Assembly: GCA_964435715.1 (NCBI GenBank)
Contig: CAYTAI010000001.1
Coordinates: forward strand, 48,556-87,499
Origin: an uncultured Verrucomicrobiota bacterium
GTDB taxonomy: Bacteria; Verrucomicrobiota; Verrucomicrobiia; JAWXBN01
Reading direction: 5' to 3'
DNA length: 38,944 bases
The position numbers were made by a program, and so were the translations under genes. Below, piece after piece: positions 668 to 38,944 of the stretch. Each line of letters begins with the position of its first letter. Position 1 is the stretch's first letter. The notes beneath the pieces were generated by a model that saw nothing but the letters and a program-made list of their open reading frames with translations, was not told the origin of the DNA and made no database searches.

Positions 668-1966
668 GTGAAAGAAACCGGGATAGGAATAATCGGGCTG
701 GGTGTCGTCGGTCAAGGTGTCTTCAAGCACCTTCACCGGAACGCCCCCCTTTTGTCCGAACGAACCGGTTCCCGCCTCTCGGTCAAAAAAGTTTTTGCCC
801 GCAATCGCAAGAAAAAGAGGGATGTCACCATCGCCCCGGCTCTGTGGGCCGCCAATTGGCAATCTGTCGTCGATGATCCCGCGGTGCAAATTGTTGTCGA
901 GCTCGTGGGCGGGACGACCGTCGCGCGGCAAATTGTTTCGACAGCACTCAAAAAAGGTAAAACCGTGGTCACCGCAAATAAAGCATTGTTGGCAGAGCAC
1001 GGGAACGAGCTTTTTGCGCTGTCGGCGAAATACAAGGCACCCTTGTTTTATGAGGCCAGTGTCGCGGGAGGCATTCCCATCATCAAAGCATTGAATGAAG
1101 GGCTGGTGGCAAATCGTGTCCTGAGCCTGCACGGGATCGTCAATGGCACTTGCAATTACATTCTCTCAAGCATGACCCAGAGCGGAGCCGGTTTCGAGAC
1201 AGCACTGGCAGAGGCCCAGAAGCTCGGCTTTGCCGAAGCCGACCCCACCCTTGATATTGACGGATGGGATGCCGCACACAAGACCTGCATTCTCGCCTCA
1301 TTGGCATATGGATTTTGGGTGAATCCCAAACAAATGTATGTCGAGGGGATTCGCCGCATCAGTGCCCAAGACATTTGTTATGCCCGCCAGCTGGGTTATG
1401 TGATCAAATTGCTCGGCATCATCCGCGCCGACGGGAAAAACGATGTCGAGATACGGGTGCATCCGGCATTGGTGCCCAAAGAGCATGTGCTCGCCCAGGT
1501 CAATGGATCCTTCAATGCCATTTGTGTCCGCGGGGACGTCGTCGGTGACACTTTGTTTTATGGGCGCGGCGCGGGCCAGGATCCCACAGCCAGCGCGGTC
1601 ATCGGTGATATCGCCGAGGCGGCGGGATATCTCACGACGAATAAACAAGTCCGCTCTTTCTGTGCCCACAAGCTATACGGCAAAGTCAAAAAAATCGACG
1701 ACACGGTCAACCGCTATTACTTGCGGCTGAGTGTGCTGGATAAACCCGGTGTGCTCGCGCAAATTGCGCGGATTCTGAGCAAACACAAAATCGGCATCTC
1801 ATCGGTGATCCAGCCCGAGAGCGACGAGGAGGGGGAGCATGTCCCGCTCGTGCTTTTGATTCATGATTCCCTCGAGCGCAATTTGCGCGCGGCACTCAAA
1901 CAAATCGACAAACTCTCCACGGTCAAAGCTCCCACGCGCCTGATCCGGATTGAAACTTTTGAATAA
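668..1966 (+). CDS. hom: Homoserine dehydrogenase
   Basis: 432 aa with a GTG start. N-terminal NAD-binding GIIGLGVVGQGV, a central homoserine dehydrogenase core (NGTCNYILS, EADPTLDIDGWDAAHK) and a C-terminal ACT-like region. Sits directly upstream of thrC and lysC. Confidence 0.92.
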   Translation: MKETGIGIIGLGVVGQGVFKHLHRNAPLLSERTGSRLSVKKVFARNRKKKRDVTIAPALWAANWQSVVDDPAVQIVVELVGGTTVARQIVSTALKKGKTVVTANKALLAEHGNELFALSAKYKAPLFYEASVAGGIPIIKALNEGLVANRVLSLHGIVNGTCNYILSSMTQSGAGFETALAEAQKLGFAEADPTLDIDGWDAAHKTCILASLAYGFWVNPKQMYVEGIRRISAQDICYARQLGYVIKLLGIIRADGKNDVEIRVHPALVPKEHVLAQVNGSFNAICVRGDVVGDTLFYGRGAGQDPTASAVIGDIAEAAGYLTTNKQVRSFCAHKLYGKVKKIDDTVNRYYLRLSVLDKPGVLAQIARILSKHKIGISSVIQPESDEEGEHVPLVLLIHDSLERNLRAALKQIDKLSTVKAPTRLIRIETFE

Positions 1967-1967
1967 C

Positions 1968-3022
1968 ATGTCCACGCCTTCCCACTACGCAGGACTCATC
2001 CGCCGTTACCGCCGTTTTCTGCCCGTGACGGACAAGACCCCTGTCGTCACCTTGCATGAAGGGAATACCCCCCTCGTCGCTGTCGACCGTTTTGTCAAAG
2101 CCATCGGCGGGAAATTCAAGCTCTACCTCAAATATGAAGGGCTCAATCCCACTTGCTCTTGACGATGGCCATTTCCAAGGCGGCGGAGGAAGGCGCAAAA
2201 GTCGTCATTTGTGCCAGCACCGGAAATACCTCGGCCTCGGCGGCGGCTTATGCGGCACGCGCGGGGATGAAAGCCGTCGTGCTCCTGCCCGCAGGAAAAA
2301 TCGCCCTCGGCAAGCTCGCCCAGGCCATGATGTATGGAGCGCAGATTATATCCATCGACGGGAATTTTGATGAGGCTCTCAATCTTGTGCGTGAGATCGG
2401 CGCCCTCGGCGGGGTAGCAGTGGTCAATTCCATTAACCCCGTCCGGATCGAAGGGCAAAAAACGGCTTCCTTTGAAATCGTCGATGACCTCGGGGACGCT
2501 CCTGACTGTCATTTCCTGCCCGTTGGCAATGCCGGAAATATCACCGCCTATTGGAAGGGCTTTCAAGAATACCACGCCGCCGGCCTTGCGCGCAAATTGC
2601 CCCGGATGTGCGGCTGGCAAGCCGCGGGTGCCGCACCGATTGTCCTCGGTCACGTCGTGGATCATCCGCACACGGTCGCCACCGCGATCCGGATTGGCAA
2701 CCCCGCCAGTTGGAAAGGAGCCTCTGCCGCCGCACGGGACTCGGGTGGTTTCATCGACTTGGTCACTGACGAGGAAATCCTCTCTGCATACAAGCTCCTC
2801 GCCTGCACAGAAGGCATTTTTGTGGAGCCCGCCTGCGCCGCTCCGCTGGCAGGATTGATGAAAAAATTAAAGGCCGACGCGCAATTTGCCCGGGAGAGTG
2901 TGATCACCGCCACAATGACCGGGCACGGTCTCAAAGATCCCGACTCCGCCATCGGTGCCAGCGGACATCCGATCACGGTGCCTGCGACCAAAGACGCCGT
3001 TCTCAAGGCGATTGGAATCTAG
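1968..3022 (+). pseudogene. thrC: Threonine synthase disrupted by a frameshifting deletion that removes the PLP-lysine motif
   Basis: The N-terminal piece (1968..2162) ends in EGLNPT-CS-stop. The C-terminal piece (2162 onward, other frame) starts TMAISKAAEEG..CASTGNTSASAAAYAARAG and is otherwise a full-length ThrC. The conserved GSFKDRGM block (24 nt) is represented by only 8 nt (2154-2161). Confidence 0.8.
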
Positions 3023-3032
3023 GGAAAAATTT

Positions 3033-4354: not shown

Positions 4355-4873
4355 TCAGCCAATCGAGCCATCAAGGAGACCGATGAAAAGCGGGTCATTT
4401 TTCAGCGGGGTGAAATCGGGGTCTTGGGCGGCGAGGGCGCGGCAATTTGCGTGGAGCTTGACGGCTTTTTCGAGAAGAAACAATGCGTGTCCGGTATTCC
4501 CAAGCTGGGTTTCGTAACAGGCGAGGTTGTACAAAATCAGCCATTCCTTTGGAAAGCGTATTGCCCCCTTGCGGAGGATGTCCCGTGCTTCGTTGATATT
4601 CCGGGCACGGCGTGTGGCGTAGGCTGAGAGGATGAACCACGCGCTGCGACCCGAGCAATTTGTCTCATGAGCGAGAAGGAGTTCTGCCGCCCGCGCAAAT
4701 TGCTCCAGAGAATTGAGAATGCCCGCCCGCATCAGGATGGCGTCCGGATGTGCGCGGTCGGCTTCCGCCAAAGAATCCAGCTCGATCAAGGCATCGTCGT
4801 CCATGCCGAGGGAGTGGTAACCGCTGGCGCGTTCAATGGCTTTCAGGCTTTCAGCTGACACGACAGGATTCAT
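4355..4873 (-). CDS. Hypothetical helical-repeat (TPR-like) protein
   Basis: I chose the internal ATG at 4873 (MNPVVSAESL). The longer ORF to 4984 would overlap the upstream thioesterase gene. All-helical repeat character (LILYNLACYETQLGNTGHALFLLEKAVKL). Confidence 0.55.
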   Translation of the reverse strand: MNPVVSAESLKAIERASGYHSLGMDDDALIELDSLAEADRAHPDAILMRAGILNSLEQFARAAELLLAHETNCSGRSAWFILSAYATRRARNINEARDILRKGAIRFPKEWLILYNLACYETQLGNTGHALFLLEKAVKLHANCRALAAQDPDFTPLKNDPLFIGLLDGSIG

Positions 4874-4896
4874 AATGAAAAACACGGGGGCAAAAG

Positions 4897-5301
4897 TTAT
4901 TTGGAAAAAAACTCCGCCCATTCTTTCGGGGCGGGTTGCACCTTGCCCTCGGGCATCTTGAGCAGGGCGAGGGTTTGATGGCAATGGATGAGTTTCTTGC
5001 CGTCCCTGGGACGGATGATCTCCGTGGTGACATGAAACCGCACACGATCCACTCCCGTGAGGGTCGAGACAATATCGAGAGTTTCCCCGAGACGGGCGGG
5101 TTTGAGATAGTCAATCTCCGTCCTCACGACCACGGCAAAAAGATTTTGCGCGGCGCAGGTTTTGATGTCGTGACCCAGTTGCGCGGCGAGTTTTGTGCGG
5201 GCATACTCGATAAAGCGCAGGTAGGCGATATTGTGAACCACCCCGCCCGCGTCGGTGTCGTAGAACATCACCTCGATTTTGCCGGTGTAGACCGTTTTCA
5301 T
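4897..5301 (-). CDS. Acyl-CoA thioesterase, 4HBT/YbgC hotdog family
   Basis: From MKTVYTGKIEVMFYDTDAGGVVHNIAYLRFIEYAR, the typical 4HBT catalytic Asp region. The ATG at 5301 overlaps the UDG stop by 4 nt (ATGA). Confidence 0.8.
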   Translation of the reverse strand: MKTVYTGKIEVMFYDTDAGGVVHNIAYLRFIEYARTKLAAQLGHDIKTCAAQNLFAVVVRTEIDYLKPARLGETLDIVSTLTGVDRVRFHVTTEIIRPRDGKKLIHCHQTLALLKMPEGKVQPAPKEWAEFFSK

Positions 5302-6236
5302 GATTGGATGGCGTTTAAAAAATAATTTTGCTGTTTTTCGGAGACGGGCATCCCGAGTTTCATCATCACGGCGATGAGATCCTCCCATGCTTTGCGTTTT
5401 TCGGTGAGACCGGAGGGACCGGCTTTGCGGAGCAAATAGCTCGGATGATAGGTTGGCATGACGGGGATTCCGCGGAAATCGAGCCATTTTCCGCGCAATT
5501 TGCCAATGCCGGTATCCAGACTCAAGAGTCCGCGGACAGCGGATGAGCCGAGAGCGACAAGGACTTTGGGCCGGATGATGTCGATTTGAGAAATGATGTA
5601 GGGGCGGCAGTTGTTGATTTCATCCGGTGTGGGCGGGCGATTCCCGGTCGAGCCTGATGGCATGTCGGGGCGGCACTTGAGGATATTGCCGATGTAAATA
5701 TCATTACGGTCGAGCCTCATCGCCTGGATCATTTTGGTGAGCAATTGTCCGGCGCGCCCGACGAAGGGTTCCCCCTGGACATCTTCTTCAGCTCCGGGAG
5801 CCTCTCCGACAAACATGAGATCGGCATGGATGGTGCCTGTGCCAAAAACAACTTGTGTCCGTGTGCGTGCCAGATGCGGACAGATTTGGCAGGCGATTAC
5901 CCGTTCCTGCAATTTTTTGAATTCACTTTCTTTGTCCTCCGCGGAGAGCGGTGGACCGAAAGAAATTGCCGGAACAGGAGTTGTGGTTGGCGCAGGATCC
6001 GGCGCGGGCGCGGGTTTCTGGGATATCGATTTGCGTGGAGCAATTTGCCCCGGGAGTGTGGGCGTGTCGGGAGCGTGTCGGGGCGTGGGTTGCGGGGGCG
6101 GGGAGCCGGGAGCAACCGGGCGGGCGAGGGCGAGCAATTCCTCACGGGAAGCCTCAATGTGGGTGACTCCGTCGCTTTTGAGTTGATGAAGATAGCCGAT
6201 GACGGCGTCCAGTCCGTCTGTAAATGCAGTGCTCAT
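5298..6236 (-). CDS. Uracil-DNA glycosylase, family 4, with a Pro-rich N-terminal extension
   Basis: C-terminal domain has CxxCxL...VFGTG...MFVGEAPGAEED..GEPFVGRAGQLL...NILKCRP...HPSYLLR, the family 4 UDG signature. There is a 4-nt overlap with rluD. Confidence 0.85.
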   Translation of the reverse strand: MSTAFTDGLDAVIGYLHQLKSDGVTHIEASREELLALARPVAPGSPPPQPTPRHAPDTPTLPGQIAPRKSISQKPAPAPDPAPTTTPVPAISFGPPLSAEDKESEFKKLQERVIACQICPHLARTRTQVVFGTGTIHADLMFVGEAPGAEEDVQGEPFVGRAGQLLTKMIQAMRLDRNDIYIGNILKCRPDMPSGSTGNRPPTPDEINNCRPYIISQIDIIRPKVLVALGSSAVRGLLSLDTGIGKLRGKWLDFRGIPVMPTYHPSYLLRKAGPSGLTEKRKAWEDLIAVMMKLGMPVSEKQQNYFLNAIQS

Positions 6237-7205: not shown

Positions 7206-9020
7206 ATGGCTCAAGTCGTCAATGAACTTAATTGCATCCACTGCAATACACTCCTTTCCGTCGAAGGAATCGAACCGCTCTCCCGTGTAGCGTGTCCGGT
7301 TTGTGCCCATGAGAACCTGGTGCCGCTGATCGTTGCCAATTACCGGATTGTCTCCATGATCGGAACGGGCGGGCAGGGAACTGTTTATCGCGCCCATGAC
7401 ACTTCATTAAACCGCGTGGTGGCTGTGAAACTCCTGAAGGCGGAGCTTGCCTCCGACCAGCAATTCATTACGAATTTCGCCCGTGAAGCCCGCGCTGTGG
7501 CGATGGTGACGCATCCGTATGTGGTGCAGATATATTCTTTTGGCGAGGACGAGGGGCAATATTACCTCGCCATGGAGCTCATGGAGCAGGGGAATCTCGA
7601 TGATAGAATTGAAAAGGAAGTCAAACTCCCCGAGGTCGAGGTCCTGCAAATCGGCGCGCAAATTGCCGCAGGTCTCCAGGCGGCCTTTGAGAAAGGATTG
7701 ATCCACCGGGACATCAAACCCGGAAATATTCTTTTTGATGATCATATGCAGGCGAAGCTCGTGGATTTCGGCCTTGCCACCGTCGAAGGAGCGAATGCCA
7801 ATCAGGAAATCTGGGGCACGCCTTATTACATATCGCCGGAGAAACTCAGCGGCGGGCATGAGGATTTCCGCAGTGACATCTACAGTCTGGGAGCGACACT
7901 TTTTCATGCGATTGCCGGGCGTCCGCCATTTGAGGGGGAAGATGCCACCGAAATTGTCGCCAAACACATGCAATCCCACGCCGTTTCGCTTCAAGCTTTT
8001 GCCCCGCATGTGGCGGATGAGACGGCTTATGTGATTAATAAAATGCTCAATAAAAATCCGTATGAGCGTTATGCGAGTTATGACGAGCTGCTCCAGCATT
8101 TGAATTACGCGCGCGAACAAATCGAAGCCCGCTTTCAGAATCCGCAAGCAGCCCAAAAACAAACCTTCAAAATGGAGGAGGAGCCGGACAAAAACCCGCT
8201 GATTCTTTGGGGTGTTATCGGGATGCTGGCGGTTGTCATCGGGTTAATTGTTTTTGTCGGGCTGAATTATGAAATGCTTTTTGGCCTCGAAACAAAAAAA
8301 GAGACCGCCAAAGCTGTTGTCACGGAGAAGTCAAAGTTATCTTTGGAACAACAGGACATGTGGAACAAGGGAAATCAATTCCTTTCAACCGGGCAATTTG
8401 CCGAGGCACTCGAAGAGTATACCCGGCTTCAAGAGCAACTTCCGGTCGATGCTCAAAACCCTGTTTCTCAATGGCTCCCTCTTCAAATCATGGCGGCTTA
8501 TTATGGGGCGGGAGATTTACCCAAAATCAACGAAATGATTGTGACATTCAAAGCGGGCAATGAAATCGCCCTGCCGGCAAAAATCTCGCCTGATAAATTG
8601 ACGCAAGAAATAATCAAGGCCGTCACGACACGCCGCCCGGCCAATGACGAGAATAATTGGATTTCACAGCAAAGCAGGGATGTCTCCCGCATGGCGTCAT
8701 TTTACCTCGCGATGAAAGCCCTCTCCCTTTCAAATTATGACCGGGCAGTGGAGCTTTTTAAGCGGTCCCAGAGTATCGCGGTGACGGAAGGCTGGATGAG
8801 ACAAACGGGTGATTTCGGAAAAAAATTTGAAGATGATTACAATTTATACAAATCCTTGGATCAAAAAATCAAGGCCGTCACTGATGAGGAACAAGCTAAA
8901 AGTGTCATCGCAGAAATTTCCACCGCCATGACCGCGATCCGGTTCCCCGTCTTTTTGGAATCATTGCGCGCCTCTGAGTATGATTTAAAAACAAGATTCG
9001 AGCAACCGGCTACCCCTTGA
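7206..9020 (+). CDS. Serine/threonine protein kinase with N-terminal zinc-ribbon, one TM helix and a helical C-terminal domain
   Basis: CxxC...CPVC at the N-terminus. Hanks kinase motifs GTGGQGTVY, VAVK, HRDIKPGNIL, DFG and GTPYYISPE. A hydrophobic helix (ILWGVIGMLAVVIGLIVFVGL) is followed by about 250 aa of helical/TPR-like sequence. Confidence 0.9.
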   Translation: MAQVVNELNCIHCNTLLSVEGIEPLSRVACPVCAHENLVPLIVANYRIVSMIGTGGQGTVYRAHDTSLNRVVAVKLLKAELASDQQFITNFAREARAVAMVTHPYVVQIYSFGEDEGQYYLAMELMEQGNLDDRIEKEVKLPEVEVLQIGAQIAAGLQAAFEKGLIHRDIKPGNILFDDHMQAKLVDFGLATVEGANANQEIWGTPYYISPEKLSGGHEDFRSDIYSLGATLFHAIAGRPPFEGEDATEIVAKHMQSHAVSLQAFAPHVADETAYVINKMLNKNPYERYASYDELLQHLNYAREQIEARFQNPQAAQKQTFKMEEEPDKNPLILWGVIGMLAVVIGLIVFVGLNYEMLFGLETKKETAKAVVTEKSKLSLEQQDMWNKGNQFLSTGQFAEALEEYTRLQEQLPVDAQNPVSQWLPLQIMAAYYGAGDLPKINEMIVTFKAGNEIALPAKISPDKLTQEIIKAVTTRRPANDENNWISQQSRDVSRMASFYLAMKALSLSNYDRAVELFKRSQSIAVTEGWMRQTGDFGKKFEDDYNLYKSLDQKIKAVTDEEQAKSVIAEISTAMTAIRFPVFLESLRASEYDLKTRFEQPATP

Positions 9021-9467
9021 ATGGATATGAAGGGATTTTCAAGGGTGATATTTGTTTTTTTTGCGAGCCTTCTGGCGGGCAGTTCGATTTTCATGAGTTT
9101 TGTCGTTGCACCCGTGGCTTTCAGGCGGTTTCCCAAAGAGCTGGCCGGTGATATCACGGGGGCGCTTTTTCCCGCTTATTTTGCGGTGCAAATTGCTTCA
9201 TCGTTATTGTTGATCATTTCATTACTCCCCTTTTTTATCCGGGGACATAAAAGTCATATTACTTCGGTGATTTTTGCAGGAGTCATCCTCTTTTCCGCGA
9301 GTTTGAATTTATTTGCTGTTCTCCCTCAAGCACGGGAATACCGTGGAAATGAAAAGTACCGGGAGGAATTCCGCAGGGAACACTCCAAAAGCATGATATT
9401 GAATCTCGCGGCTGTTCTTGCTTCGGCGGGAATTATTGTGCTCATCCCGCGCTCCTTAAATGGATGA
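9021..9467 (+). CDS. DUF4149-like small membrane protein
   Basis: The ATG directly abuts the kinase TGA stop. About 4 hydrophobic helices. The N-terminal pattern (AGSSIFMSFVVAPVAFRRFPKELAGDITGALFPAYF) resembles DUF4149 family members. Confidence 0.65.
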   Translation: MDMKGFSRVIFVFFASLLAGSSIFMSFVVAPVAFRRFPKELAGDITGALFPAYFAVQIASSLLLIISLLPFFIRGHKSHITSVIFAGVILFSASLNLFAVLPQAREYRGNEKYREEFRREHSKSMILNLAAVLASAGIIVLIPRSLNG

Positions 9468-10639: not shown

Positions 10640-12007
10640 TCAGATTTCCAAGCGGTTTGCGCCGTCGGGGAGATCCGCATCCAGCCCCCGGGCGCGGAGG
10701 GTGTCCCGGAGCCATTCCAGCGCGGGGGTGTCGCCATGAACCAGGAGCGTTTTGCGCGGACGCAGGGCCGTGGCGAGTGCGACCAGATCATCCCGCAGGG
10801 CATGCGCGGTAAAGTCGAATTTCTCCACGCGACAGCGAATTTCACGGGGGGCGGAGTCATTTTCCCCCAGCACAACGGGAGCCCCCCCCTCCACAGCGGA
10901 CAAAATGCGGCCTCCGGGTGTGTCCGGGTCCACGTAGCCCACAAAAAGAATCGCATTGGACGGGTCGCTGAGAAAATGTCCCGCCGCTGTGTAAGCCGGG
11001 GTCATCTCGGTGAGCATTCCCGCCGAAATCGCAAAAATCGTCGGCACATCCGTGCGCCACCATTTCGACCCGTCGCGGGGAATGACCTGTGGACAGAAAT
11101 CCTCGAAGATGGAGAATCCCTCCATCCGGCGCGTGTCATGTTCCCGGTAGAGATCATAAACCAGGGAGATTTGTTTGCCCATGCCGCCGATCATGACGGG
11201 GTAATCGGGCAATTTGCCCGAGTCCATGAGGTTTTTCAGCATCGCGAGAGTCTCCTGCTGTTTGCCCAGCGCGAAACAGGGCAGGAGCACATTGCCACCG
11301 CGCTCCAGCACGGCATTGAGGGTCTGTGCAAACCGTTCGATCTCGGCCTCGCGATAGCCTGCGCCCCCGGCGGCGGTCAGTCCGCGGGTGCCCTCGATGA
11401 TGAGCAAATCCAGGGGCCCCAGCCCCGACAATTCGGCTTTGCGCATCAGGGACTGGTCGGAGAGATTGATGTCCCCGGTGTAGAGGGCGCGTTCATGCCC
11501 GGAGTCAAAAAGAAACGAGGCCGACCCGAGCACATGCCCGGCATTCAATGGGGTCACCTCAATGTCCGTGCCGCCGGAACGGGCCGCAAGATCGAAGGGG
11601 CGGGTGAACCGGTGTGGCCTCCAGCTTTTTTCCTGACGGTCCACCTCCCGGTGAGTGAAAAGCGGGTAATCCGGATGGCCCGTGCGCTCTTTTTCCTTGG
11701 CCATGATGTTGCAGGAATTGTGCAGCATGATCGAGGCCAGCTCCACGGAGGGTTCGGTCATGTGAATCTCCGCCGAAGGAAAAGCCCTTTGGGCCACGGG
11801 CAGGGAACCCAGGTGATCCATGTGGCAATGACTCATCAGAATGTGATCCACCCCATCCGCGTCGGGAATGTCCAGACGGGGCAAGGACGCCCGCCCCTCT
11901 TTTTTCGGGTTCATTCCGCAGTCGAGCAGGATTTTGACCCCCTCCATTTCGAGAAGGTAGCAATTTGCCCCGATTTCATTGCCGCCGGTGAGATTGGTGA
12001 ATTGCAT
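10640..12007 (-). CDS. MBL-fold metallo-hydrolase of the beta-CASP (RNA-processing, CPSF/RNase J-like) type
   Basis: 455 aa. HCHMDHLGSLP metallo-beta-lactamase motif, followed by a beta-CASP-like middle region and a C-terminal HGD motif (LLVHGDTPAL). Confidence 0.8.
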   Translation of the reverse strand: MQFTNLTGGNEIGANCYLLEMEGVKILLDCGMNPKKEGRASLPRLDIPDADGVDHILMSHCHMDHLGSLPVAQRAFPSAEIHMTEPSVELASIMLHNSCNIMAKEKERTGHPDYPLFTHREVDRQEKSWRPHRFTRPFDLAARSGGTDIEVTPLNAGHVLGSASFLFDSGHERALYTGDINLSDQSLMRKAELSGLGPLDLLIIEGTRGLTAAGGAGYREAEIERFAQTLNAVLERGGNVLLPCFALGKQQETLAMLKNLMDSGKLPDYPVMIGGMGKQISLVYDLYREHDTRRMEGFSIFEDFCPQVIPRDGSKWWRTDVPTIFAISAGMLTEMTPAYTAAGHFLSDPSNAILFVGYVDPDTPGGRILSAVEGGAPVVLGENDSAPREIRCRVEKFDFTAHALRDDLVALATALRPRKTLLVHGDTPALEWLRDTLRARGLDADLPDGANRLEI

Positions 12008-12775: not shown

Positions 12776-12845
12776 CACGTTCCGCGCAATTTGCCACGGT
12801 TCGTCCCCGGTGTCGAATGCTAAAAATCGCGGGGAAAAACCCCAC

Positions 12846-21205: not shown

Positions 21206-22927
21206 CTATTTTTGCAAATGACTCGCGGGCAAATAGTATTCATCCCGGATTTTGAAGATGAGAATGTCCGGGGCGGGGGACTCCGTGACCTTTTCATACC
21301 ACGGGCTGTGATTCATCGCCTCCAGCAGTGCCGGACTGATGAGATTTAATCCTCTGGGTAAACCATCTGGAATGGATTCGGCAGGAACTGTGATGAAATA
21401 GACTGGGCGTTTGGCTTTAATCTCGCCGACCAATTTGCGCAAATCAGATTCCCCGAAATTATAGGAAAAGATTTGGGTGTCTTGATTACGAACCGTTTTA
21501 TTTTTCATCATGTAATAGGACAAGGTGTTCCGGCTCAGGGTGGGAACGGAACATCCCGCCATGATCCAGCGATTCGCGCTCTCGGGGCGTGCAGCGGTTT
21601 GTTCAATCGTCTCAGTGATTTGCCGAGAGCGTGTGTCGTCCCGGTCGAGTCGCCAGAGGTATTCGGAGAGCCCCGGAGAGTTGGGTAAAAATCCGAGAGC
21701 ATGGGCGTGGACAAAAATGTATTGAAAAGAAAAGAGGGTGAAGACGCAAATAATGAGGACGCGGTTATTGAGCAGGGAGAGGATGCCTGCGAGGAAAAAG
21801 ACAAAAAATGGCAGGAGAGGAGTCAGGAATCGGCTTATCTCATTGGCTTGTGAGGAATGAATGATTAAAGCCAAGAGAAAAGAGGCGGTGCAAACTAGAC
21901 AGAGTGGAAGTCCGGGCAAATTGTGGGAAATTTTTTGTCTCGCCGTTTTTTTCCTAAAAAATTCGCGGACACTTTTCCATTGGAGAAACGCAAAAATAAG
22001 AATGAGCAGGAAAACAGCAAGAAAGGCGGAGGCAGTAAAATAACTTTCTATGATTGAGCTGAGCCAGAATTTTATTTTTTCCGAAAAAGGAGATGCGGAA
22101 CCGTAGATCGCACCGGATTGGCTCTGAGCATTGATTTTGATGAAAAGCCAGAGCAAATCAAAATTTTTGACAAGCCACATCAAAGCGGCTATTCCTCCGA
22201 AAATCGTGAATCCCATCGCGGCAAGATCGATCCGGCGCAATTTGCCCCGCGACCATTGATCAGGATTTTTATGGAGCCGCCGGACGGTATGGATTGCGAT
22301 GTATGAGACGGGAATCAAGGCGTAAAGCGGAAAAGTCACTTTCATCAGGCATCCCCAGATAAAGGCAGCGGCCGTGTGCCAGAAGATTGCGCGGAGCGGC
22401 CATTGATCGAGTCTGCTGATGATCAAGAGCAACCAGCAAATGGCCATCATTTGAGGGGCTTCGACCAGGAATTGCTGATTCATGCCGGAAAAAAGCGGAG
22501 CAGCCGCGAGAGCCAGTGGACAAAACCAGGCGAGTCCATTTTTCCCTGGAAAAACTGAGCGTGCCGTCAAAAAAACCAGAATCAGTGAGAGAATCGAAAT
22601 CAGGACGATCAAGGTTAAAAAAATGCTGTCGTGAAATCCGGACAAATCCCCAAGAGGTGTGGCAAATTGCGCGAGCCAGGGCAGTCCGGGGGTTTTGAGC
22701 CGGAGCGTGAGCATCATGGCATCCCACCAGTCCAATGGATTGATTGTTAAATATTTCCAAAGCCAGACCGAGTAATATCCGTATTCCGCCTGATCCCAAG
22801 GCCAGACACGTTTATCGAGCCAGACCCAGAGCAGGGATGGAAGCATCAGTCCGATACAAAAAAACGCCCCGGCTTTTTCCTTGGATAATACGCGGGAAAG
22901 AAAGGGCGAAGTAATCATTTTTTTCAA
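21206..22927 (-). CDS. Polytopic membrane protein, putative GT-C type glycosyltransferase (ArnT/PMT-like)
   Basis: 573 aa with more than 10 hydrophobic helices. An acidic first-loop segment (LDKRVWPWDQAEYG) and a soluble C-terminal domain give a GT-C-like architecture. TTG at 22927 or ATG at 22918 as the start. Confidence 0.5.
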   Translation of the reverse strand: MKKMITSPFLSRVLSKEKAGAFFCIGLMLPSLLWVWLDKRVWPWDQAEYGYYSVWLWKYLTINPLDWWDAMMLTLRLKTPGLPWLAQFATPLGDLSGFHDSIFLTLIVLISILSLILVFLTARSVFPGKNGLAWFCPLALAAAPLFSGMNQQFLVEAPQMMAICWLLLIISRLDQWPLRAIFWHTAAAFIWGCLMKVTFPLYALIPVSYIAIHTVRRLHKNPDQWSRGKLRRIDLAAMGFTIFGGIAALMWLVKNFDLLWLFIKINAQSQSGAIYGSASPFSEKIKFWLSSIIESYFTASAFLAVFLLILIFAFLQWKSVREFFRKKTARQKISHNLPGLPLCLVCTASFLLALIIHSSQANEISRFLTPLLPFFVFFLAGILSLLNNRVLIICVFTLFSFQYIFVHAHALGFLPNSPGLSEYLWRLDRDDTRSRQITETIEQTAARPESANRWIMAGCSVPTLSRNTLSYYMMKNKTVRNQDTQIFSYNFGESDLRKLVGEIKAKRPVYFITVPAESIPDGLPRGLNLISPALLEAMNHSPWYEKVTESPAPDILIFKIRDEYYLPASHLQK

Positions 22928-27069: not shown

Positions 27070-27101
27070 AAAAAAAGCCCGCGCAATTTGCGCGGGCTTT
27101 T
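27070..27101 (-). terminator. Rho-independent terminator (hairpin built around a GCAATTTGC copy) downstream of 27130..28020
   Basis: gcccgcgcaa-t-ttgcgcgggc is a perfect 10-bp-arm hairpin (27077..27097). It is followed on the minus strand by a 7-U tract (A-run 27070-27076), and a short T-run sits on the plus side. Confidence 0.8.
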
Positions 27102-27129: not shown

Positions 27130-28020
27130 TTACTTCAGCTTGCCCGTTTTGAAGGCGGTCAGGTGTTTTTTCCAGAGCGTCTCGGTTTCCTTGCGGAGGA
27201 GGCAGGCGTCTTTCCACACATCGGGGAAGGTCGTCAGGCCATAGGAACTGCAACGCGGGCCGAATTCCGGACAGACATAAAGGGTCGCCCCGGCTTTGGC
27301 GCGCGGGCCTTTGAACCATTCCGCCAGCAGATCGCCGACGAATTCCACATAGGCGGCCCCCTCAGGGCAGATTTTGCCTTTGCCATTGGTCAGGGGAACC
27401 TGGCAATGGTGCCCATTGAAAGGACGCAGGTGAAGCTGGCGCGCATTTTGCGTGAGGTCGAGGCGTTCGACGAGCAAACGGTTTTTGTAAGGGGGATAGA
27501 TGTGTTTGACCACGGCGAAGTGGGAGAAGTCGAAGCACATCTGGATTTTTTTGCCTGTTTTTTGCTGGTAGAGCCTCGCGATCTCGTAGGTTTTTTCCGG
27601 GGTTTCCGTGCAAGTGTCGCGGTGGACTTCCAGATCGATTTTGTCCGCGATGCCCAGCTTTGCGGCGTAATCCATCATTGCCAGCCAGACTTTGACCGCG
27701 TCCTTGGGCAGGGTGTCATGGTCGCACATTTGCACATTGACGCGGGAGGGGTTGCATTTTGCGGCGGCATCGAGACGGTCCTTGTAGATTTTGATGTTCG
27801 AGTCGATGTAAACCACCAGTTCCATCTTGTATTTTTTCGCGAGGGGAACAAACAATGCGGGGTCAGCCCAGACACCCATTGCGTCGAAGCCGGCTTTCTT
27901 GGCCTGTTTGAATTTTTCCTCGGGGCTCCACTCTTTTTTGGGATTTTCAATGTCAGGCTGGTGGGTGAGCGTCCACATGCCGGCAAATTGCTTCAGGGCG
28001 GGGATTTTGGGGGTTGCCAT
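27130..28020 (-). CDS. Sugar phosphate isomerase/epimerase-like (xylose isomerase-like TIM barrel) protein
   Basis: 296 aa with an alternating beta/alpha character (KKAGFDAMGVWAD, MELVVYIDS, VNVQMCDHD, IDLEVHRDT, FDFSHF), consistent with the AP endonuclease 2/xylose isomerase-like fold. The assignment is tentative. Confidence 0.45.
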   Translation of the reverse strand: MATPKIPALKQFAGMWTLTHQPDIENPKKEWSPEEKFKQAKKAGFDAMGVWADPALFVPLAKKYKMELVVYIDSNIKIYKDRLDAAAKCNPSRVNVQMCDHDTLPKDAVKVWLAMMDYAAKLGIADKIDLEVHRDTCTETPEKTYEIARLYQQKTGKKIQMCFDFSHFAVVKHIYPPYKNRLLVERLDLTQNARQLHLRPFNGHHCQVPLTNGKGKICPEGAAYVEFVGDLLAEWFKGPRAKAGATLYVCPEFGPRCSSYGLTTFPDVWKDACLLRKETETLWKKHLTAFKTGKLK

Positions 28021-32379: not shown

Positions 32380-32385
32380 CTCTGC

Positions 32386-32438: not shown

Positions 32439-33254
32439 CTACACGATGCGGGTGGGGGCGGTGTAAATATTAAAAGTCTGTTCGCGCAGGAAGCCAATGA
32501 GGGTTTGGCCGCTGTCGTGGGCGAGGGCTACCGCGAGGCTCGACGGGCCGGAGACAGCGGCGATGACGGGGATTCCCGCCGCGAGAGCTTTTTGCACGAT
32601 CTCGAAGGAGGTTCGTCCGCTGACAAAAAGAATGTGGTCGTGGAGCGGGAGCAATTGGCGAGCGGCGGCGTAACCGATGATTTTGTCCACGGCATTGTGC
32701 CGTCCGACATCCTCGCGCAGCGCGAGCAATTTGCCCGTGAAATCAAAAAGCCCGGCGGCGTGGAGGGAGCCGGTTCGCTCGAAAACCTCCTGCGCCGCGC
32801 GCAATTTGCCCGGCAGGGAGCAGATGATCCCCCGCGCAATTTGCGCGGGGCGCGGCGGCACCGGCGGGAAGTGGGCGTGAACCCCCTCGATCGACGCCTT
32901 GCCACAAATGCCGCAGCTTGAGGAGGCGTAGAAATTCCGGCGCAATTTGTCCGGGTCGAAGTGCGTGCCGGGCGTGAGAAAAACATTCAGGATATTGCGC
33001 GTGTGCGCCGCCTCGCCCTGTTGGCAATACTCAATCTGGGCAATTTGCGCGGGTGAGGTGATCAGACCCTCGGTCAGGAGAAAGCCGGTCGCCAGCTCCC
33101 CGTCATGCCCCGGGGTGCGCATGGTCACCGCGACGCTGTGGCCTTTGACACGAATCTCCAACGGCTCCTCCACGGAGAGGATATCGCTCTCGACGGTGGC
33201 GGGAAGCTCCCCTTCGATACGAGTCTTGGAGCAATTTGCGATGCCGATGGTCAT
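32439..33254 (-). CDS. fdhD: Formate dehydrogenase accessory sulfurtransferase FdhD
   Basis: 271 aa. EEPLEIRV, MRTPGHDGELATGFLLTEG, SSCGICGK, GLHAAGLF, VGRHNAVDK and SGR.SFE are FdhD hallmarks. Confidence 0.9.
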   Translation of the reverse strand: MTIGIANCSKTRIEGELPATVESDILSVEEPLEIRVKGHSVAVTMRTPGHDGELATGFLLTEGLITSPAQIAQIEYCQQGEAAHTRNILNVFLTPGTHFDPDKLRRNFYASSSCGICGKASIEGVHAHFPPVPPRPAQIARGIICSLPGKLRAAQEVFERTGSLHAAGLFDFTGKLLALREDVGRHNAVDKIIGYAAARQLLPLHDHILFVSGRTSFEIVQKALAAGIPVIAAVSGPSSLAVALAHDSGQTLIGFLREQTFNIYTAPTRIV

Positions 33255-33437: not shown

Positions 33438-34124
33438 TTACAATATTCCACCGCGCAATTTGCTCCGGAAGACGAGTTCGAAGAGGTCTTTTTTTCTTTC
33501 GACAGCCGAGATCTCGGCTTCGGGATGTTGTTTGGCATCAATCAAAAGGAGGCTTTGTTTCGGTTCAAAAAGGAGGCGGACGGAACGAACGATCTGGAGG
33601 TGGGTGCGGTCGAGGGCATCGCCGAGGCGGAGGAAGGCGGCGAGGATTTCCACGGTTTTTTTGTCAGCGGGGGACAGGGGATGAAAGTGGGGATGGGCCT
33701 CGCTGGGCAAGGCTTTGCGATGGTAACGGGCGACATTGGCGATAATGGCTTTTTCGCGGGCAGAAAAAGATTTCCACGTGGTTTCGAGAATGAATTGCTG
33801 GGAGTATTTGTGGTGTTTCGACCCGTCGGGTGTGATGGCCCAGCCCGTATCGTGGAGCAGGGCAGCGGCGACAAGCCAGAGATTCTCCTCCTCCCCGTAG
33901 CCGTGCAAATGGGCGGCTTGTTTGAAAAGGGAACCGGCGAGTCGAGCAACTTGCGCGACGTGCTCCGGCTCTTCCTCAATGGTGAGCATTACGGTGAGAA
34001 CCTCGTCGAGCCGGGGGCGGTGAATATCGCTGATGTCCAACGAGGCGGAGAACTCTTCCCATCCGCGGGAGGGGGAGGATGCTTGGGGGTGTGAACCATT
34101 CATGTCTGGATTCGTATCACTCAT
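33438..34124 (-). CDS. HD domain-containing protein (Ppx/GppA C-terminal HD-like)
   Basis: 228 aa. ALLHDTGW (HD motif), helical, with ARYHRK and LRLGDALD as in the HD domains attached to exopolyphosphatase-like proteins. Confidence 0.7.
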   Translation of the reverse strand: MSDTNPDMNGSHPQASSPSRGWEEFSASLDISDIHRPRLDEVLTVMLTIEEEPEHVAQVARLAGSLFKQAAHLHGYGEEENLWLVAAALLHDTGWAITPDGSKHHKYSQQFILETTWKSFSAREKAIIANVARYHRKALPSEAHPHFHPLSPADKKTVEILAAFLRLGDALDRTHLQIVRSVRLLFEPKQSLLLIDAKQHPEAEISAVERKKDLFELVFRSKLRGGIL

Positions 34125-34755: not shown

Positions 34756-35116
34756 GCGGCAACCGTGTCGCTGAAATACGCCACGCGAAAATAAATAAGC
34801 AATCCGCAGAAAGGAGCAATGATTATTTTGACTGCAAAAGAGAGTTGTATTTTTGGTTCTCGGCATGATTGCTCGTGGCAAAAGTCCCTTTGCGGGCGGT
34901 TTTGACGCCCGGACATGATGATAATCAACTACAAGAAAAGAGTTTATATCAATCGACGGGATGGCTTTGGATCGGCAGGTGTGGGCAATTTGCGCGGGAC
35001 AATAGCTTTGCGGGGATGCTGTCACAGGATGTTTTCAGAGAGAATTTAAAAAAGGGTTTGACGCAAATTGCGGCACTCAATAGATTGCCCGCCTCACTGC
35101 TAAGAAATTTTGCAAC

Positions 35117-37028: not shown

Positions 37029-37061
37029 ACCGTTTTTTTTTGATTTCAAGGATATTTCCCT

Positions 37062-37454
37062 ATGAAAAACACCCGCCAAGCACTCAAGGAAGCCAGGAAA
37101 TTCGTGCGCGCCTGCACGACCGGTGGAGCATTGGACGAGGTGCGGGCTCTGAATATCGTCAAAGCATTGATCGAAAAAAAACCGGCGGGTTACCGGCAGA
37201 TGGTTAATGCCTTTACCCGCCTTTTGCGTTTGGAAATACACAAGCGCAGTGTGCTGGTCGAGTCGGCGGGCGCCTTGGACGCCGCGACCACGGCTGCAAT
37301 CAAGTCGGCAGTGGAAAAAACCCACGGCCAAGGACTGTCTTTTGAATCCAGAGCACATCCGGCATTGCTTGCCGGTGTGAAAATCCGGGCGGGCAGCGAC
37401 ATCTATGATGGTTCGGTCGCCGGACGTTTGGAGCAACTTAAAGAAGCCTTTTAA
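37062..37454 (+). CDS. atpH: F0F1 ATP synthase subunit delta (short form)
   Basis: 130 aa. The C-terminus [26 protein letters not shown] matches the OSCP/delta signature. Operon position between b and alpha. Confidence 0.75.
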
Positions 37455-37483
37455 TCGCAAAATCAATCCCCGAGGAAAACAAG

Positions 37484-38944
37484 ATGAGCACCCTTTTACA
37501 GGATATCGAAACACAAATCGCCGGTTTAAAAACCGCTGTCACCCGCCAAAATGTCGGCACCGTCCGTGAGATCGGTGACGGCGTCGCCAAGATCGAGGGT
37601 CTGGGCGATTGTATGATGAATGAAATGGTGGAGTTCGAAGGCGGAACAATCGGTCTGGCACTCAACCTCGAAGACTCGCAGGTCGGTGCGGTGGTCATCG
37701 GTGAATACACGCACATTAAAGAAGGTTCCGAAGTCAAAACCACAGGCAAATTGCTCCAGGTGCCCGTCGGCAAAGGATTGCTCGGCCGCGTGGTGGATGC
37801 CCTTGGCCGTCCGATTGACGGAAAGGGACCGATTAAAAGTGATGTATCCTATCCGGTTGAAAAAATCGCTGCGGGGATCATCAAACGCAAAGGCGTCAAT
37901 CAACCGGTCCAAACCGGCATCATGGCTGTGGACGCGATGATCCCGATCGGCCGCGGACAACGTGAGCTCATCATCGGTGACCGTGCGACGGGCAAGACCA
38001 CTGTCGCAATCGACACGATCATTAATAATGCGAATATCAACCGCCAGAACAAGGATAATCCGAATTTCCGTCCCATCTACTCGATCTACGTCGCTGTTGG
38101 CCAGAAAAGCTCCAACATTGCCCGTGTCATCGGCATTTTGGAAGAAAAAGGTGCCCTGGAATATACCATCCTCGTGGTCGCCAGCGCGGCGGACTCGGCG
38201 ACAAACCAGTATCTCGCCCCGTTCTCCGGTTGTGCGTTGGGTGAATGGTTCATGGACAATGGCATGGATGCCTTGATTATTTTTGATGATTTGTCAAAGC
38301 ATGCCGCGGCTTACCGCCAGATTTCGCTTTTGCTGAAACGCCCTTCCGGTCGTGAAGCGTATCCCGGTGACGTTTTTTATCTGCACTCCCGGCTGCTCGA
38401 GCGTTCAGCCCGTTTGAATGAGAAAAACGGGAACGGTTCCCTGACAGCCCTGCCGATTATTGAAACTCAAGCCGGTGACGTGTCCGCTTACATTCCGACC
38501 AATGTCATTTCAATCACTGACGGTCAGATTTATCTCGAAACCGATCTTTTCTACCAGGGTGTCCGCCCGGCGATCAATGTGGGTCTGTCCGTCTCCCGTG
38601 TGGGTTCCGCCGCGCAGATTAAAGCGATCAAACAAGTTGCCGGAAAAATCAAAGGTGAGCTGGCGCAATTCCGTGAGCTCGCCGCATTTGCACAATTTGG
38701 CAGCGATCTGGACGCGGCGACCAAAGCGAAACTGGACCGCGGTTCGCGTATTGTCGAGCTTTTCAAGCAGAACCAATACAATCCTTTTCCTGTCGAGCTG
38801 CAGTCCGCTGTCCTGTGGACGATTCAAAACGGTCAAATGGATGATGTGGCTGTCGACAAAATCAAGGATTTCCAGACAAAACTCATTGATTTCCTGCAGA
38901 CACGCAAACCGGCGATTTTGGATGCGATCCGCAAAGAGCAAGCC
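37484..38944 (+). CDS. atpA: F0F1 ATP synthase subunit alpha (3' partial, runs off the window end; absent from the supplied ORF track)
   Basis: My own translation from the ATG at 37484 is open for 487 codons to the last base. Motifs [18 protein letters not shown] (Walker A), [32 protein letters not shown] and ITDGQIYLE. Confidence 0.93.

Follow-up and report, generated by a model that had tools for sequence, protein, structure and literature searches.

GCAAWTTGC, an overabundant odd palindrome in the DNA of an uncultured Verrucomicrobiota lineage

Iterated words in bacteria and the word of the window

In enterobacteria, CCWGG, an odd palindrome centred on W like the word described here, GCAAWTTGC, is read by the Dcm methyltransferase and by the very-short-patch repair nuclease Vsr, biasing substitutions toward the site; its excess is mild and its deamination product CTWGG is depleted, whereas GCAAWTTGC is in about 40-fold excess and its transition one-offs are enriched. 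In Campylobacter, RAATTY and CtsM provide methylation-dependent discrimination of self DNA in transformation, the word being short and not hyper-abundant beyond composition. HIP1 (GCGATCGC) and the alternate HIPs of cyanobacteria (Elhai 2015, PMC4390886; Xu et al. 2018, PMC5861425) are, like GCAAWTTGC, short palindromes, with a HIP1 density of about one per kb (PMC4390886) and a conservation not accounted for by codons or peptides (PMC5861425); two preprints link HIP1 to methylation-dependent transformation (bioRxiv 10.1101/2024.09.10.611283, 10.64898/2026.06.24.733823). The DUS of Neisseriaceae and the USS of Pasteurellaceae are asymmetric words of 9–12 nt that share with GCAAWTTGC a density of about one per kb, the invasion of genes and alteration of proteins, build-up by point mutation and occasional use in terminator hairpins, although about half of their copies lie in terminators (bioRxiv 10.1101/2025.10.24.684340). 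Related lineages carry DUS dialects (PMC3630211).

The stretch of DNA analysed here (the window) comprises 38,944 nt of an uncultured Verrucomicrobiota bacterium (GCA_964435715.1, CAYTAI010000001.1, positions 48,556 to 87,499), and the host of the word is an uncultured lineage of this phylum. GCAAWTTGC, a 9-base odd palindrome with a W centre, has 40 exact copies in the window, about one per kb, and each of the 40 coordinates in the original prediction matches it exactly; HIP1 has 0 copies in the window. The overabundance is confirmed as real: dinucleotide shuffles of the window contain 1.31 sites on average (maximum 5), Markov models of orders 0–4 predict 0.28–1.49, and no family of 7- to 13-mers in the window outnumbers the word with its sub- and super-words. 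A maximal-order Markov model, originally proposed as the decisive check, gives an observed/expected ratio of 40/39.0 = 1.02, formally the value named as refuting; it is uninformative because the 7- and 8-mers feeding the model are almost all motif copies, and the test is thus ill-posed.

The half-sites are strictly spaced, with 42 copies of GCAA-Nx-TTGC at x = 1 and 0–2 at every other x. Position -2 is G in 30 of the 40 copies (p about 1e-9) and position +2 is C in 27 (2e-8), so that the fuller form of the word is a 13-bp dyad, G-S-GCAA-W-TTGC-S-C. The flanks are indeed G/C-rich, as had been noted, but the contiguous extension of the palindrome described with them is found in only 10 of 40 copies; this complementarity of the ±1 pair (25%) is no more than chance, which disfavours selection for hairpins. 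One-mismatch sites, of which at least a dozen had been anticipated, number 38 in the window. One-off variants pile up at the first and last base, the end transitions GCAAWTTGT and ACAAWTTGC occurring 30 times versus 3.9 expected, and CAAWTTG, the inner part, is scarcely enriched where it stands outside the 9-mer (19 versus about 13). One-offs of HIP1 show the same end-base pattern (PMC4390886).

Placement in genes and pressure on the DNA

The copies are listed below with window coordinates, codon phase, encoded peptide and state in the loci of relatives (L numbers).

1759..1767, hom, phase 2, AQIA; motif in same column of L086, GCAAGTTGC in L081
1878..1886, hom, phase 1, RNLR; window only, relatives GCCATTTGC
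2592..2600, thrC, phase 1, RKLP; common to L085 and L086
2881..2889, thrC, phase 2, AQFA; in all four clade species
4442..4450, TPR gene (4355-4984, minus strand), phase 0, ANC
4695..4703, same TPR gene, phase 2, EQFA
5495..5503, family-4 uracil-DNA glycosylase gene, phase 1, GKLR
6040..6048, uracil-DNA glycosylase gene, phase 2, GQIA
7658..7666, Ser/Thr kinase gene, phase 2, AQIA
8393..8401, Ser/Thr kinase gene, phase 2, GQFA
9188..9196, DUF4149 gene, phase 2, VQIA
11209..11217, beta-CASP metallo-beta-lactamase gene, phase 1, GKLP; also in L333
11960..11968, beta-CASP gene, phase 0, ANC; also in L333 and L334
12786..12794, TPR ORF 12419-13111 (minus strand), phase 2, WQIA; also in L333 and L334
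16372..16380, chrA, phase 2, GQIA; also in L333 and L334
19796..19804, photolyase gene, phase 0, ANC; window, L333, L334 and L336
19858..19866, photolyase gene, phase 1, RKLP; window, L333, L334 and L336
20500..20508, photolyase gene, phase 1, RKLR; also in L333 and L334, L335 column GCAAAATGC
20536..20544, photolyase gene, phase 1, CKLL; ACAAATTGC in L334
20596..20604, photolyase gene, phase 1, RKLL; window and L333 only
20892..20900, photolyase gene, phase 2, EQIA; window and L333 only, GCAACTTGC in L336
21077..21085, photolyase gene, phase 0, ANC; also in L333 and L334, lost in L336 via an end transition (GCAAATTGT)
22237..22245, PMT_2 glycosyltransferase gene, phase 1, GKLR; GTAAATTGC in L334
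22662..22670, PMT_2 gene, phase 2, AQFA; GCAATTTGT in L334
24871..24879, intergenic, between divergent genes; also in L334
25714..25722, epimerase (fcl-like) gene, phase 1, RKLL; also in L334
27068..27106, bidirectional intrinsic-terminator hairpin AAAAAAAGCCCGCGCAATTTGCGCGGGCTTTT (-25.6 kcal/mol, z -4.3), its tip formed by motif copy 27083-27091; conserved in L333 apart from a flip of the centre base
27983..27991, gene 27130-28020 (minus strand), phase 2, KQFA; also in L333
29691..29699, metallo-beta-lactamase-fold gene, phase 2, WQIA; also in L333
30072..30080, metallo-beta-lactamase-fold gene, phase 2, AQIA; also in L333
30968..30976, Na+/H+ exchanger gene, phase 1, GKLL; no copy in L333 (GCAAGCGGC)
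32726..32734, fdhD, phase 1, GKLL; also in L333
32801..32809, fdhD, phase 1, GKLR; also in L333
32836..32844, fdhD, phase 2, AQIA; in L333 with the alignment offset by 1 nt
33040..33048, fdhD, phase 2, AQIA; also in L333
33231..33239, fdhD, phase 0, ANC
33455..33463, HD-domain gene, phase 1, SKLR
34985..34993, ndk ORF, 5' extension; the true start probably lies downstream of the copy
35063..35071, intergenic, ndk-atpB gap
37746..37754, atpA, phase 1, GKLL

The copies are spread randomly through coding DNA at 0.6–1 per kb, in proportion to the coding share, with a Poisson-like spacing in the window that includes six pairs less than 100 bp apart. Among the sites originally called intergenic, 24871 and 35063 are so placed, whereas 12786 is not clearly intergenic, as it lies inside a TPR gene also called in L333, and the same is probably true of 34985, which falls in the 5'-extended part of the ndk ORF. 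Only one of the 40 copies is in a terminator, terminator-like sites in the window are at chance level, and so is the hairpin potential of all copies but that one; Rfam holds no family matching the motif element. Copy numbers for the photolyase gene of four species are 7, 7, 6 and 3 (P = 0.01 for the window).

Within genes, where 37 of the 40 copies lie, all three codon phases are used (5, 15 and 17 copies) and ten distinct peptide contexts are found, among them the AQIA, GQIA, RKLP, RKLL, GKLL and ANC correctly read in the original prediction. Synonymous-codon shuffles of the window retain on average 3.9 and at most 10 genic copies, and codon-order shuffles 0.64, versus the 37 observed. Peptides compatible with the motif are encoded as GCAAWTTGC in 37 of 50 cases in the window, versus 3.2 expected from codon usage, and in 29 of 42 cases in the relatives, versus 2.8 expected; in the outgroup this holds for 0 of 4. 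Such peptides are themselves about 5-fold enriched in the window (50 versus 10.5 expected; 42 versus 12.9 in the relatives), and therefore the pressure acts on the DNA and reshapes proteins. The earlier proposal that DNA, rather than a protein motif, is under constraint is strongly supported by these counts and shuffles, the three phases and the intergenic copies. The word belongs to the DNA duplex rather than to proteins, RNA hairpins or mobile insertions; its copies prevail over codon usage and alter the encoded amino acids. The plus-strand excess of GCAATTTGC in the window (29:11) is an effect of gene orientation: on the coding strand the centre base is A in 31 of 37 genic copies, and in the relatives the ratio is 18:11, the same as that of the NNAAWTTNN control.

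Conservation and turnover in related genomes

The comparative data comprise about 164 kb from 5 genomes. Four related species, represented by independent assemblies (JGI, ENA/Logan and NCBI), carry the word at 0.56–1.07 per kb (124 sites in 164 kb), and the pooled non-redundant clade has 101 sites in 143 kb versus 2.4 expected. The outgroups have one copy in 63 kb, and betaproteobacterial loci 18 copies in 1.33 Mb (0.014 per kb). GCAAWTTGC also turns up in some viral and metagenomic contigs, where it forms coding repeats for coiled coils (EQIA), tandem repeats or operator-like clusters.

Orthologous sites are kept 4–7 times more often than other 9-mers: 20 of 35 (57%) versus a background of 7.8%, and 9 of 15 and 9 of 14 (60% and 64%) versus 15.8%; a further comparison gives 19 of 22 (86%) versus 58.6% (p = 0.005). 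Selection on each site and continuing drive are not distinguishable in this retention. The ortholog comparison originally suggested thus finds the word both preserved (57–64% versus 8–16%) and created by lineage-specific point substitutions. No indels occur at motif sites in the ortholog alignments, where turnover is by substitution; the alignments indicate that copies arise in place through point substitutions and that new ones keep appearing in each species. The sister MAG L335 is devoid of GCAAWTTGC and has instead six copies of GCAAAATGC in 11 kb versus 0.2 expected, a non-palindromic word differing by one base, which may represent a "dialect". The window and L333 share a mosaic identity of 80–96%, suggesting recombination, and pilin-like N_methyl genes are present in L085.

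A putative dimeric reader and its alternatives

The parallel drawn in the original prediction with both HIP1 and DUS/USS holds phenomenologically, and in its details the word is closer to HIP1, because it is palindromic, spreads in proportion to coding DNA, has its one-offs at the end bases and has a single terminator copy among its 40. As with HIP1, it occupies coding DNA in all frames for reasons other than codon usage or peptides, its orthologous sites are conserved above control words, it is lineage-restricted, and its inner core alone is not enriched. It differs from HIP1 in its occurrence in Verrucomicrobiota, odd length, W centre, AT-rich core and additional conserved -2/+2 positions.

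From the strict spacing and the symmetric G and C at -2 and +2 we infer a reader protein that is sequence-specific and two-fold symmetric (dimeric). Our tentative reading is that GCAAWTTGC is a HIP1-like highly iterated palindrome recognised by such a protein, with drive or selection keeping it in place. By analogy with HIP1, the reader would most likely be a methyltransferase-type "self-marking" activity, whose mark would bias mismatch repair, the chances of homologous DNA in recombination or transformation, or both; substitutions creating the word would then be preferentially fixed and those destroying it preferentially lost, amounting to molecular drive, possibly with selection. The end-transition one-offs could reflect decay at an outer, possibly methylated, cytosine, or weaker constraint there. 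Against a methyltransferase, the AT-rich core and the length of 9–13 bp are unusual for Type II sites. Neither the 39-kb window nor the gene lists of the relatives' loci include a methyltransferase, Vsr-like nuclease or competence gene, and the cognate methyltransferase, competence gene or binding protein originally envisaged has no counterpart tied to the word in these loci. The repair-ratchet model of Elhai, which predicts saturation and hence rather even spacing, is disfavoured by the Poisson-like spacing and the six close pairs.

It is possible, though we consider it doubtful, that the word is an uptake sequence of the DUS/USS type, bound by a surface DNA receptor of a competence pilus, which would favour the uptake of DNA from the same species, and spread by recombination as molecular drive without methylation. 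Known uptake sequences are asymmetric, whereas the strict dyad points to a dimeric reader; the terminator share of 1/40 contrasts with about half, no receptor was found, and competence is not known in Verrucomicrobiota. This explanation would nevertheless accommodate the density of about one per kb in all frames, the protein distortion, the clade restriction, the copy topping a terminator hairpin, the mosaic identity and the pilin-like genes; the photolyase copies echo a reported bias of DUS to genome-maintenance genes, and the six copies of GCAAAATGC resemble DUS dialects (PMC3630211).

A binding-site array for an abundant nucleoid-associated or chromosome-organising protein, with sites selected for chromosome structure or segregation, is unlikely, even though a 13-bp dyad of strict spacing is typical of dimeric DNA-binding proteins and orthologous sites are kept above background. 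Known specific sites of this kind (parS, matS, Noc, SlmA) number tens per genome, not about one per kb; the placement of GCAAWTTGC is random, not regular, and its fast lineage-specific turnover within the photolyase gene fits drive better. The periodicity of HIP1 has, on the other side, been read as a signal of chromosome architecture (PMC5861425). More unlikely still is a functionless by-product, with no reader, of a sequence-specific mutation or repair bias such as quasi-palindrome template switching or context-dependent polymerase error. Origin by substitution and Poisson-like placement agree with it, and Elhai pointed out that the over-representation of HIPs could be epiphenomenal (PMC4390886), but template switching would perfect any quasi-palindrome and not one word, the ±1 flanks have not become complementary, the specificity reaches 13 bp, and a sister lineage has apparently switched to a non-palindromic word. 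That the word is no DNA signal at all is highly improbable, the coding, tandem and operator-like repeats of some viral and metagenomic contigs notwithstanding: a repeated protein motif, codon bias, a REP/MITE-type small mobile element, an RNA hairpin element and an assembly artefact are together ruled out by the three phases, ten peptide contexts and intergenic copies, the protein-keeping shuffles (3.9 versus 37), the lack of indels at sites in the ortholog alignments, the chance-level hairpin potential bar the one terminator copy, the Rfam result and the independent assemblies.

The supposition that the word was undescribed agrees with full-text searches, which returned no paper using either GCAAWTTGC or CAAWTTG as a motif of genomic DNA. 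With GCAAWTTGC, a small group of uncultured Verrucomicrobiota adds a new case, from a further phylum, to the rare "genome watermark" words, among them HIP1 of cyanobacteria and those of Neisseria and Haemophilus. Like RAATTY with CtsM, and HIP1 in Synechococcus PCC 7002 as presented in a preprint (bioRxiv 10.1101/2024.09.10.611283), the word is palindromic and AT-centred, and it may be a methylated "self" tag; if so, this would unite the methylation and the transformation readings of GCAAWTTGC.

Abundance and architecture of GCAAWTTGC

A pattern search of the window returned the same 40 exact copies of the 9-nt odd palindrome GCAAWTTGC, with the same coordinates, as had been counted in the original prediction, together with 38 sites carrying one mismatch, where at least a dozen such 8/9 variants had been claimed. 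The expectation for 38.9 kb is only 0.3–1.5 copies; Markov models of order 0–4 predict 0.28–1.49 sites, and dinucleotide-preserving shuffles of the window yield a mean of 1.3 copies and a maximum of 5. The commonest 7-, 8-, 9-, 10-, 11-, 12-, and 13-mers of the window are the word itself and its nested sub- and super-words. The maximal-order Markov observed/expected ratio, named beforehand as the refuting check, is 40/39.0 = 1.02 in the window; this value is not evidence against the excess, because the 8-mers and 7-mers on which the model relies consist of motif copies. The excess is about 40-fold in both the window and the clade of verrucomicrobial species that carry the word, whose pooled non-redundant DNA (143 kb) has the exact word 101 times where 2.4 copies are expected. 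The HIP1 word of cyanobacteria and the DUS and USS uptake words are absent from the window or at chance level in it, with 0 copies of HIP1 (GCGATCGC) in the window and 0 in L333, its closely similar relative.

According to a gene map built from codon statistics and Pfam/NCBIfam hits, 37 of the 40 copies lie in genes, coding DNA making up about 88% of the window. The claim that the word is read in every frame holds, with 5, 15, and 17 copies in codon phases 0, 1, and 2, and the individual reading-frame examples all agree with the map. The resulting peptides are A-N-C, x-K-L-x or x-N-L-x, and x-Q-I-A or x-Q-F-A. An excess of GCAATTTGC on the + strand of the window (29:11) tracks gene orientation, the centre base on the coding strand being A in 31 of 37 copies, whereas in the relatives the centre-base ratio is 18:11, the same as that of the NNAAWTTNN control. 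A transcription-linked signal was therefore dropped as a reading of this asymmetry, and the word is treated as symmetric, since the skew follows the gene strand and the relatives match the control.

The half-sites GCAA-Nx-TTGC occur 42 times at x = 1 and 0–2 times at each other spacing from 0 to 12, and the inverse arrangement TTGC-Nx-GCAA is found in the window at background level only. The flanks are indeed G/C-rich, as had been proposed, but they extend the palindrome no more often than by chance, the ±1 pair being complementary in just 25% of the copies. Position −2 is G in 30 of 40 copies (p about 1e-9) and position +2 is C in 27 of 40 (p about 2e-8). Because these two positions are conserved while ±1 complementarity stays at chance, the unit of the word is a 13-bp dyad, G-S-GCAA-W-TTGC-S-C, which resembles a dimeric protein's footprint more than a selected hairpin; selection for a hairpin or cruciform was rejected on the same chance-level flanks.

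The spacing between copies is exponential (CV 0.99, KS p = 0.92, variance/mean about 0.9) over 39 kb, a length in which periods of tens of kb are invisible, and clustering or local periodicity of the copies in the window was accordingly dropped. Seven copies fall in the photolyase gene (simulated P = 0.01) and five in fdhD. The sole structural copy, at 27083, forms the tip of a strong bidirectional terminator hairpin; generic terminator-like sites in the window are at chance level, and the stems listed for them include no motif copy. The presence of a mazF gene in the window raised the possibility of a MazF target site, which was discarded, as both the dyad symmetry and the copies between genes indicate duplex DNA. 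Fis-, PurR-, and other operator-like readings were dropped, as their spacing is different and transcription-factor sites are not known to reach 1/kb within genes.

A pressure on DNA that changes proteins

Peptides compatible with the motif are encoded as the word in 37 of 50 cases in the window genes, against 3.2 expected from codon usage, and the compatible peptides are themselves about 5-fold in excess (50 against 10.5 expected from amino-acid composition). Synonymous-codon shuffles within genes give 3.9 copies, with a maximum of 10 in 500, and codon-order shuffles 0.64, compared with the 37 observed. Three relatives present the same picture, with 29 of 42 peptides encoded as the word (2.8 expected) and 42 compatible peptides against 12.9; this distortion of codons and peptides was absent from the one outgroup in which it was looked for. 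Ortholog alignments reveal the route, for example the change of Q-V-A to Q-I-A. Both the shuffles and the peptide counts agree with the earlier claim that the constraint acts on the nucleic acid and not on a protein motif, and the pressure on DNA is so strong that it overrides codon usage and changes proteins. A protein motif, codon bias, a mobile element, an RNA element, and an artefact were all rejected as explanations, an assembly artefact because the word is present in independent assemblies from three sources.

Distribution and history of the sites

Homoserine dehydrogenase (Hom) places the window in uncultured Verrucomicrobiota, its named hits being Verrucomicrobiota or Chthoniobacter-like at 56–67% identity. 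Relatives, designated here by L-numbers for the fetched stretches, were gathered via exact-protein look-ups.

Sources of the compared DNA, with exact GCAAWTTGC sites and densities for members of the clade
Window; 40 sites in 38.9 kb; 1.03/kb
L333; NCBI GCA_030285465.1, labelled Oscillatoria laete-virens NRMC-F 0139; 23 in 21.6 kb; 1.07/kb
L085 and L334; ERR1739697 / ENA ERZ926291; 26 in 42.8 kb; 0.61/kb
L081, L336, L337, and L226; JGI 3300009084 and Ga01631xx samples; 25 in 44.5 kb; 0.56/kb
L086; SRR23918614; 10 in 16.6 kb; 0.60/kb
L335 (outgroup); JANRIZ010000127.1, 1–11280, from MAG GCA_033764445.1 'Verrucomicrobiae bacterium'; photolyase 69% identical

The word is the top 9-mer in nearly all clade sets, whereas the outgroups L087 (Hom 67%), L330 and L332 (Hom 60%), and L335 (photolyase 69%) contain one copy in 63 kb. 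A photolyase search of genome contigs led only to betaproteobacterial relatives of about 50% identity, and these loci, used as a negative control, carry 18 copies in 1.33 Mb (0.014/kb). Viral and metagenome collections were scanned for paired motifs; the matches listed were mostly coiled-coil EQIA coding repeats, 7-nt and 21–24-nt tandem repeats, and operator-like clusters, with L226 and L264 the only contigs of the dispersed type among them; in the first 120 viral stretches listed, dispersed copies were seen in no phage. Three IMG/VR stretches (L122:3317–4264, L143:3277–5566, and L124:5783–6424) have two or three clustered TAGCAAWTTGCTA-type palindromes spaced by about 25 bp, which look like operator or iteron arrays of a phage DNA-binding protein, unrelated to the dispersed word.

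L333 is 98% identical to the window in the amino-acid sequence of the photolyase and syntenic with it at 80–96% nucleotide identity. Its contig (JASVEK010000061.1, 52 kb, 23 motif copies, 0 HIP1, syntenic with the window) is probably the DNA of a heterotrophic associate from a non-axenic cyanobacterial culture, mislabelled as cyanobacterial. Several further features of the window were noted.

Other features of the window
1950–2162 and 2153–3022: thrC, threonine synthase broken into two frames at about 2150–2165; relative to L086, 16 bp encoding the S-F-K-D-R PLP-lysine segment are missing
9478–10026: RfaH/LoaP-like NusG paralogue adjoining a beta-CASP ribonuclease-like gene, the pair being kept in L333 and L336
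9790–33173: mosaic identity with L333, 96% in photolyase-AraC-PhyH, 95% in the TPR-to-NusG block, 87–90% elsewhere, and 80% in the adjacent desaturase
12966–15072: 1.8-kb AT-rich segment with a MazF/PemK toxin gene (13191–13529) and small ORFs, not present in L333
12966–13120 and 14918–15072: 155-nt inverted repeats, 88% complementary, flanking that segment
15192–16478: chrA as two ORFs (15192–15992 and 16011–16478), one 429-aa gene in L333 and L334
19682–21178: photolyase gene, like its orthologs in L333, L334, and L336 the most motif-dense gene in each species; its nearest relatives beyond the clade, at 50–54% identity only, come from betaproteobacteria
21.2–28.0 kb: about 7 kb beside the photolyase gene, DNA that L333 is without at that place

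The break in thrC represents either a pseudogene or an assembly error. The MazF/PemK segment looks like a recent insertion; it has no motif copy against about 2 expected, a gap that is not significant alone and that agrees with foreign DNA without the word. The mosaic identity suggests recombination between the lineages.

For the block from L21 to lysC, 20 of 35 ordered comparisons (57%) find a motif site identical in a second member of the clade, compared with 7.8% for all other 9-mers. The window and L333 have 19 of 22 sites in common (86%, background 58.6%, p = 0.005), and the window and L334 have 9 of 15 and 9 of 14 (60–64%, background 15.8%). Sites that are not shared usually differ by 1–3 substitutions and never by an insertion. 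The photolyase gene of four species contains 7, 7, 6, and 3 copies over 10 alignment columns, with lineage-private gains, and the terminator copy at 27083 retained the word across the window and L333 despite an exchange of A and T at its centre. The word is thus kept and, at the same time, formed anew again and again, the pattern that a balance of mutation with drive or selection would produce. The strain contigs L081–L084 are 99.9% identical, with too few SNPs for polymorphism analysis.

Among sites one base away from the word in the 143 kb of clade DNA, transitions at the two end positions show the strongest enrichment, with 19 copies of ACAAATTGC and 11 of GCAAATTGT (1.9 expected for each), together 30 against 3.9 expected. 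A C or G at the centre (GCAACTTGC and GCAAGTTGC, reverse complements of each other) is found at five sites in total against about 0.8, roughly 6-fold, and enrichment at the remaining positions reaches about 4-fold at most. Where it stands apart from the 9-mer, the core CAAWTTG shows hardly any enrichment (19 against about 13).

The 11.3 kb of L335, a sister verrucomicrobial MAG, contain no GCAAWTTGC; their top 9-mer is GCAAAATGC/GCATTTTGC, with 6 dispersed copies against 0.2 expected, located in five genes, three codon phases, and both orientations, and with C at +2 in five of six. One of these copies occupies the photolyase column that holds GCAAATTGC in the window, L333, and L334. For calibration, an equally exceptional 9-mer turns up in about 9% of control 11-kb windows, and the probability that such a 9-mer would differ from the motif by one substitution is about 1e-5 to 1e-3 in order of magnitude. 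GCAAAATGC in L335 may be a 'dialect' of the word.

Comparison with known words and possible readers

The word is a feature at the DNA level, is clade-specific and dyad-symmetric, arises from point substitutions, is placed at random at 0.6–1/kb, and is retained above background. To our knowledge, very few hyper-abundant genomic words have been described (USS, DUS, HIP1, and Chi). Full-text searches, degenerate forms included, found no use of GCAAWTTGC as a genomic motif, in line with the original prediction that it had not been described. It shares with HIP1 a short palindrome in many-fold excess at about 1 per kb, its location in genes in all frames unexplained by codon usage or peptide motifs, and the conservation of orthologous sites above control words. 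A further likeness lies in the one-offs, biased to the first and last nucleotide, with an inner core not enriched alone. Elhai described both of these features in HIP1 and took them as an argument for a methyltransferase recognizing the inner core and for a G-meC-dependent repair process by which HIP1 sites are ratcheted to about 1 per kb (PMC4390886). The differences are the sequence, which is not GCGATCGC, and the host, a member of Verrucomicrobiota and not a cyanobacterium, the HIP1 literature searched being cyanobacterial (PMC4390886, PMC5861425). Kilobase-scale periodicity is a further trait of HIP (PMC5861425); the 39 kb of the window show the local spacing of the word, which is exponential. 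By analogy, we class it as a hyper-abundant genomic word closest to HIP1, outside the HIP1 sequence family itself.

Other known systems differ more. Chi is asymmetric and skewed in orientation with replication, whereas the word is self-complementary apart from its W centre, and its centre-base skew follows the gene strand, not the window strand. REP and MITE elements are intergenic and inserted as units, in contrast to a word that is genic in 37 of 40 copies and whose orthologs differ by substitution. Targets of restriction-modification are usually avoided in the host, whereas this word is about 40-fold in excess. Deamination-type one-off variants, depleted in the Dcm/Vsr case, are enriched here.

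A putative dimeric sequence-specific protein would read the word, and a bias in repair, recombination, or uptake would maintain it. A HIP1-like, methylation-linked self-mark is tentatively ranked first, because the word is palindromic, its end one-offs match, and its copies are in genes and not in terminators; the gene map and Pfam/NCBIfam hits of the window, like the gene lists of the fetched loci, include no methyltransferase, Vsr-like nuclease, or competence gene. An uptake sequence recognized by a pilus receptor, ranked second, appears doubtful. Like DUS and USS, the word has 9–12 nt, occurs about once per kb in both orientations, and lies in genes as well as between them; uptake is also favoured by the one copy in a terminator, by the enrichment in the photolyase gene, by the mosaic pattern of identity to L333, and by the possible dialect of L335 (GCAAAATGC, 6 copies in 11.3 kb), DUS and USS having lineage dialects. 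However, its dyad symmetry speaks against it, as does the near absence of copies from terminators, since about half of DUS and USS lie in terminators or inverted pairs (bioRxiv 10.1101/2025.10.24.684340, a preprint covering Neisseriaceae and Pasteurellaceae only) and here just copy 27083 does so. An array of sites for a nucleoid protein is improbable, and a mutational by-product without any reader protein is the least probable of these explanations.

Whether selection or molecular drive sustains hyper-abundant words, and which protein reads HIP1-type palindromes, is a question decades old. An independent case in another phylum constitutes a natural experiment in which several species cover a range of divergences, sites can be seen to come and go, and the dialect may have switched; gene profiles compared across the phylogeny with the presence or dialect of the word could reveal which protein reads it. 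The word is also a sharp marker of the lineage's DNA, as it flags the verrucomicrobial contig in the Oscillatoria laete-virens assembly, and could guide DNA design for genetic manipulation of Verrucomicrobiota. As a conjecture that we consider somewhat unlikely, a genome-wide 'self' word system might have originated independently for a third time, in these uncultured Verrucomicrobiota; a co-evolving reader protein would then have moved, between sister lineages, from recognizing the palindrome GCAAWTTGC to recognizing the asymmetric GCAAAATGC. If this were true, comparison of a handful of MAGs could identify the reader and settle how HIP- and USS-like words arise.
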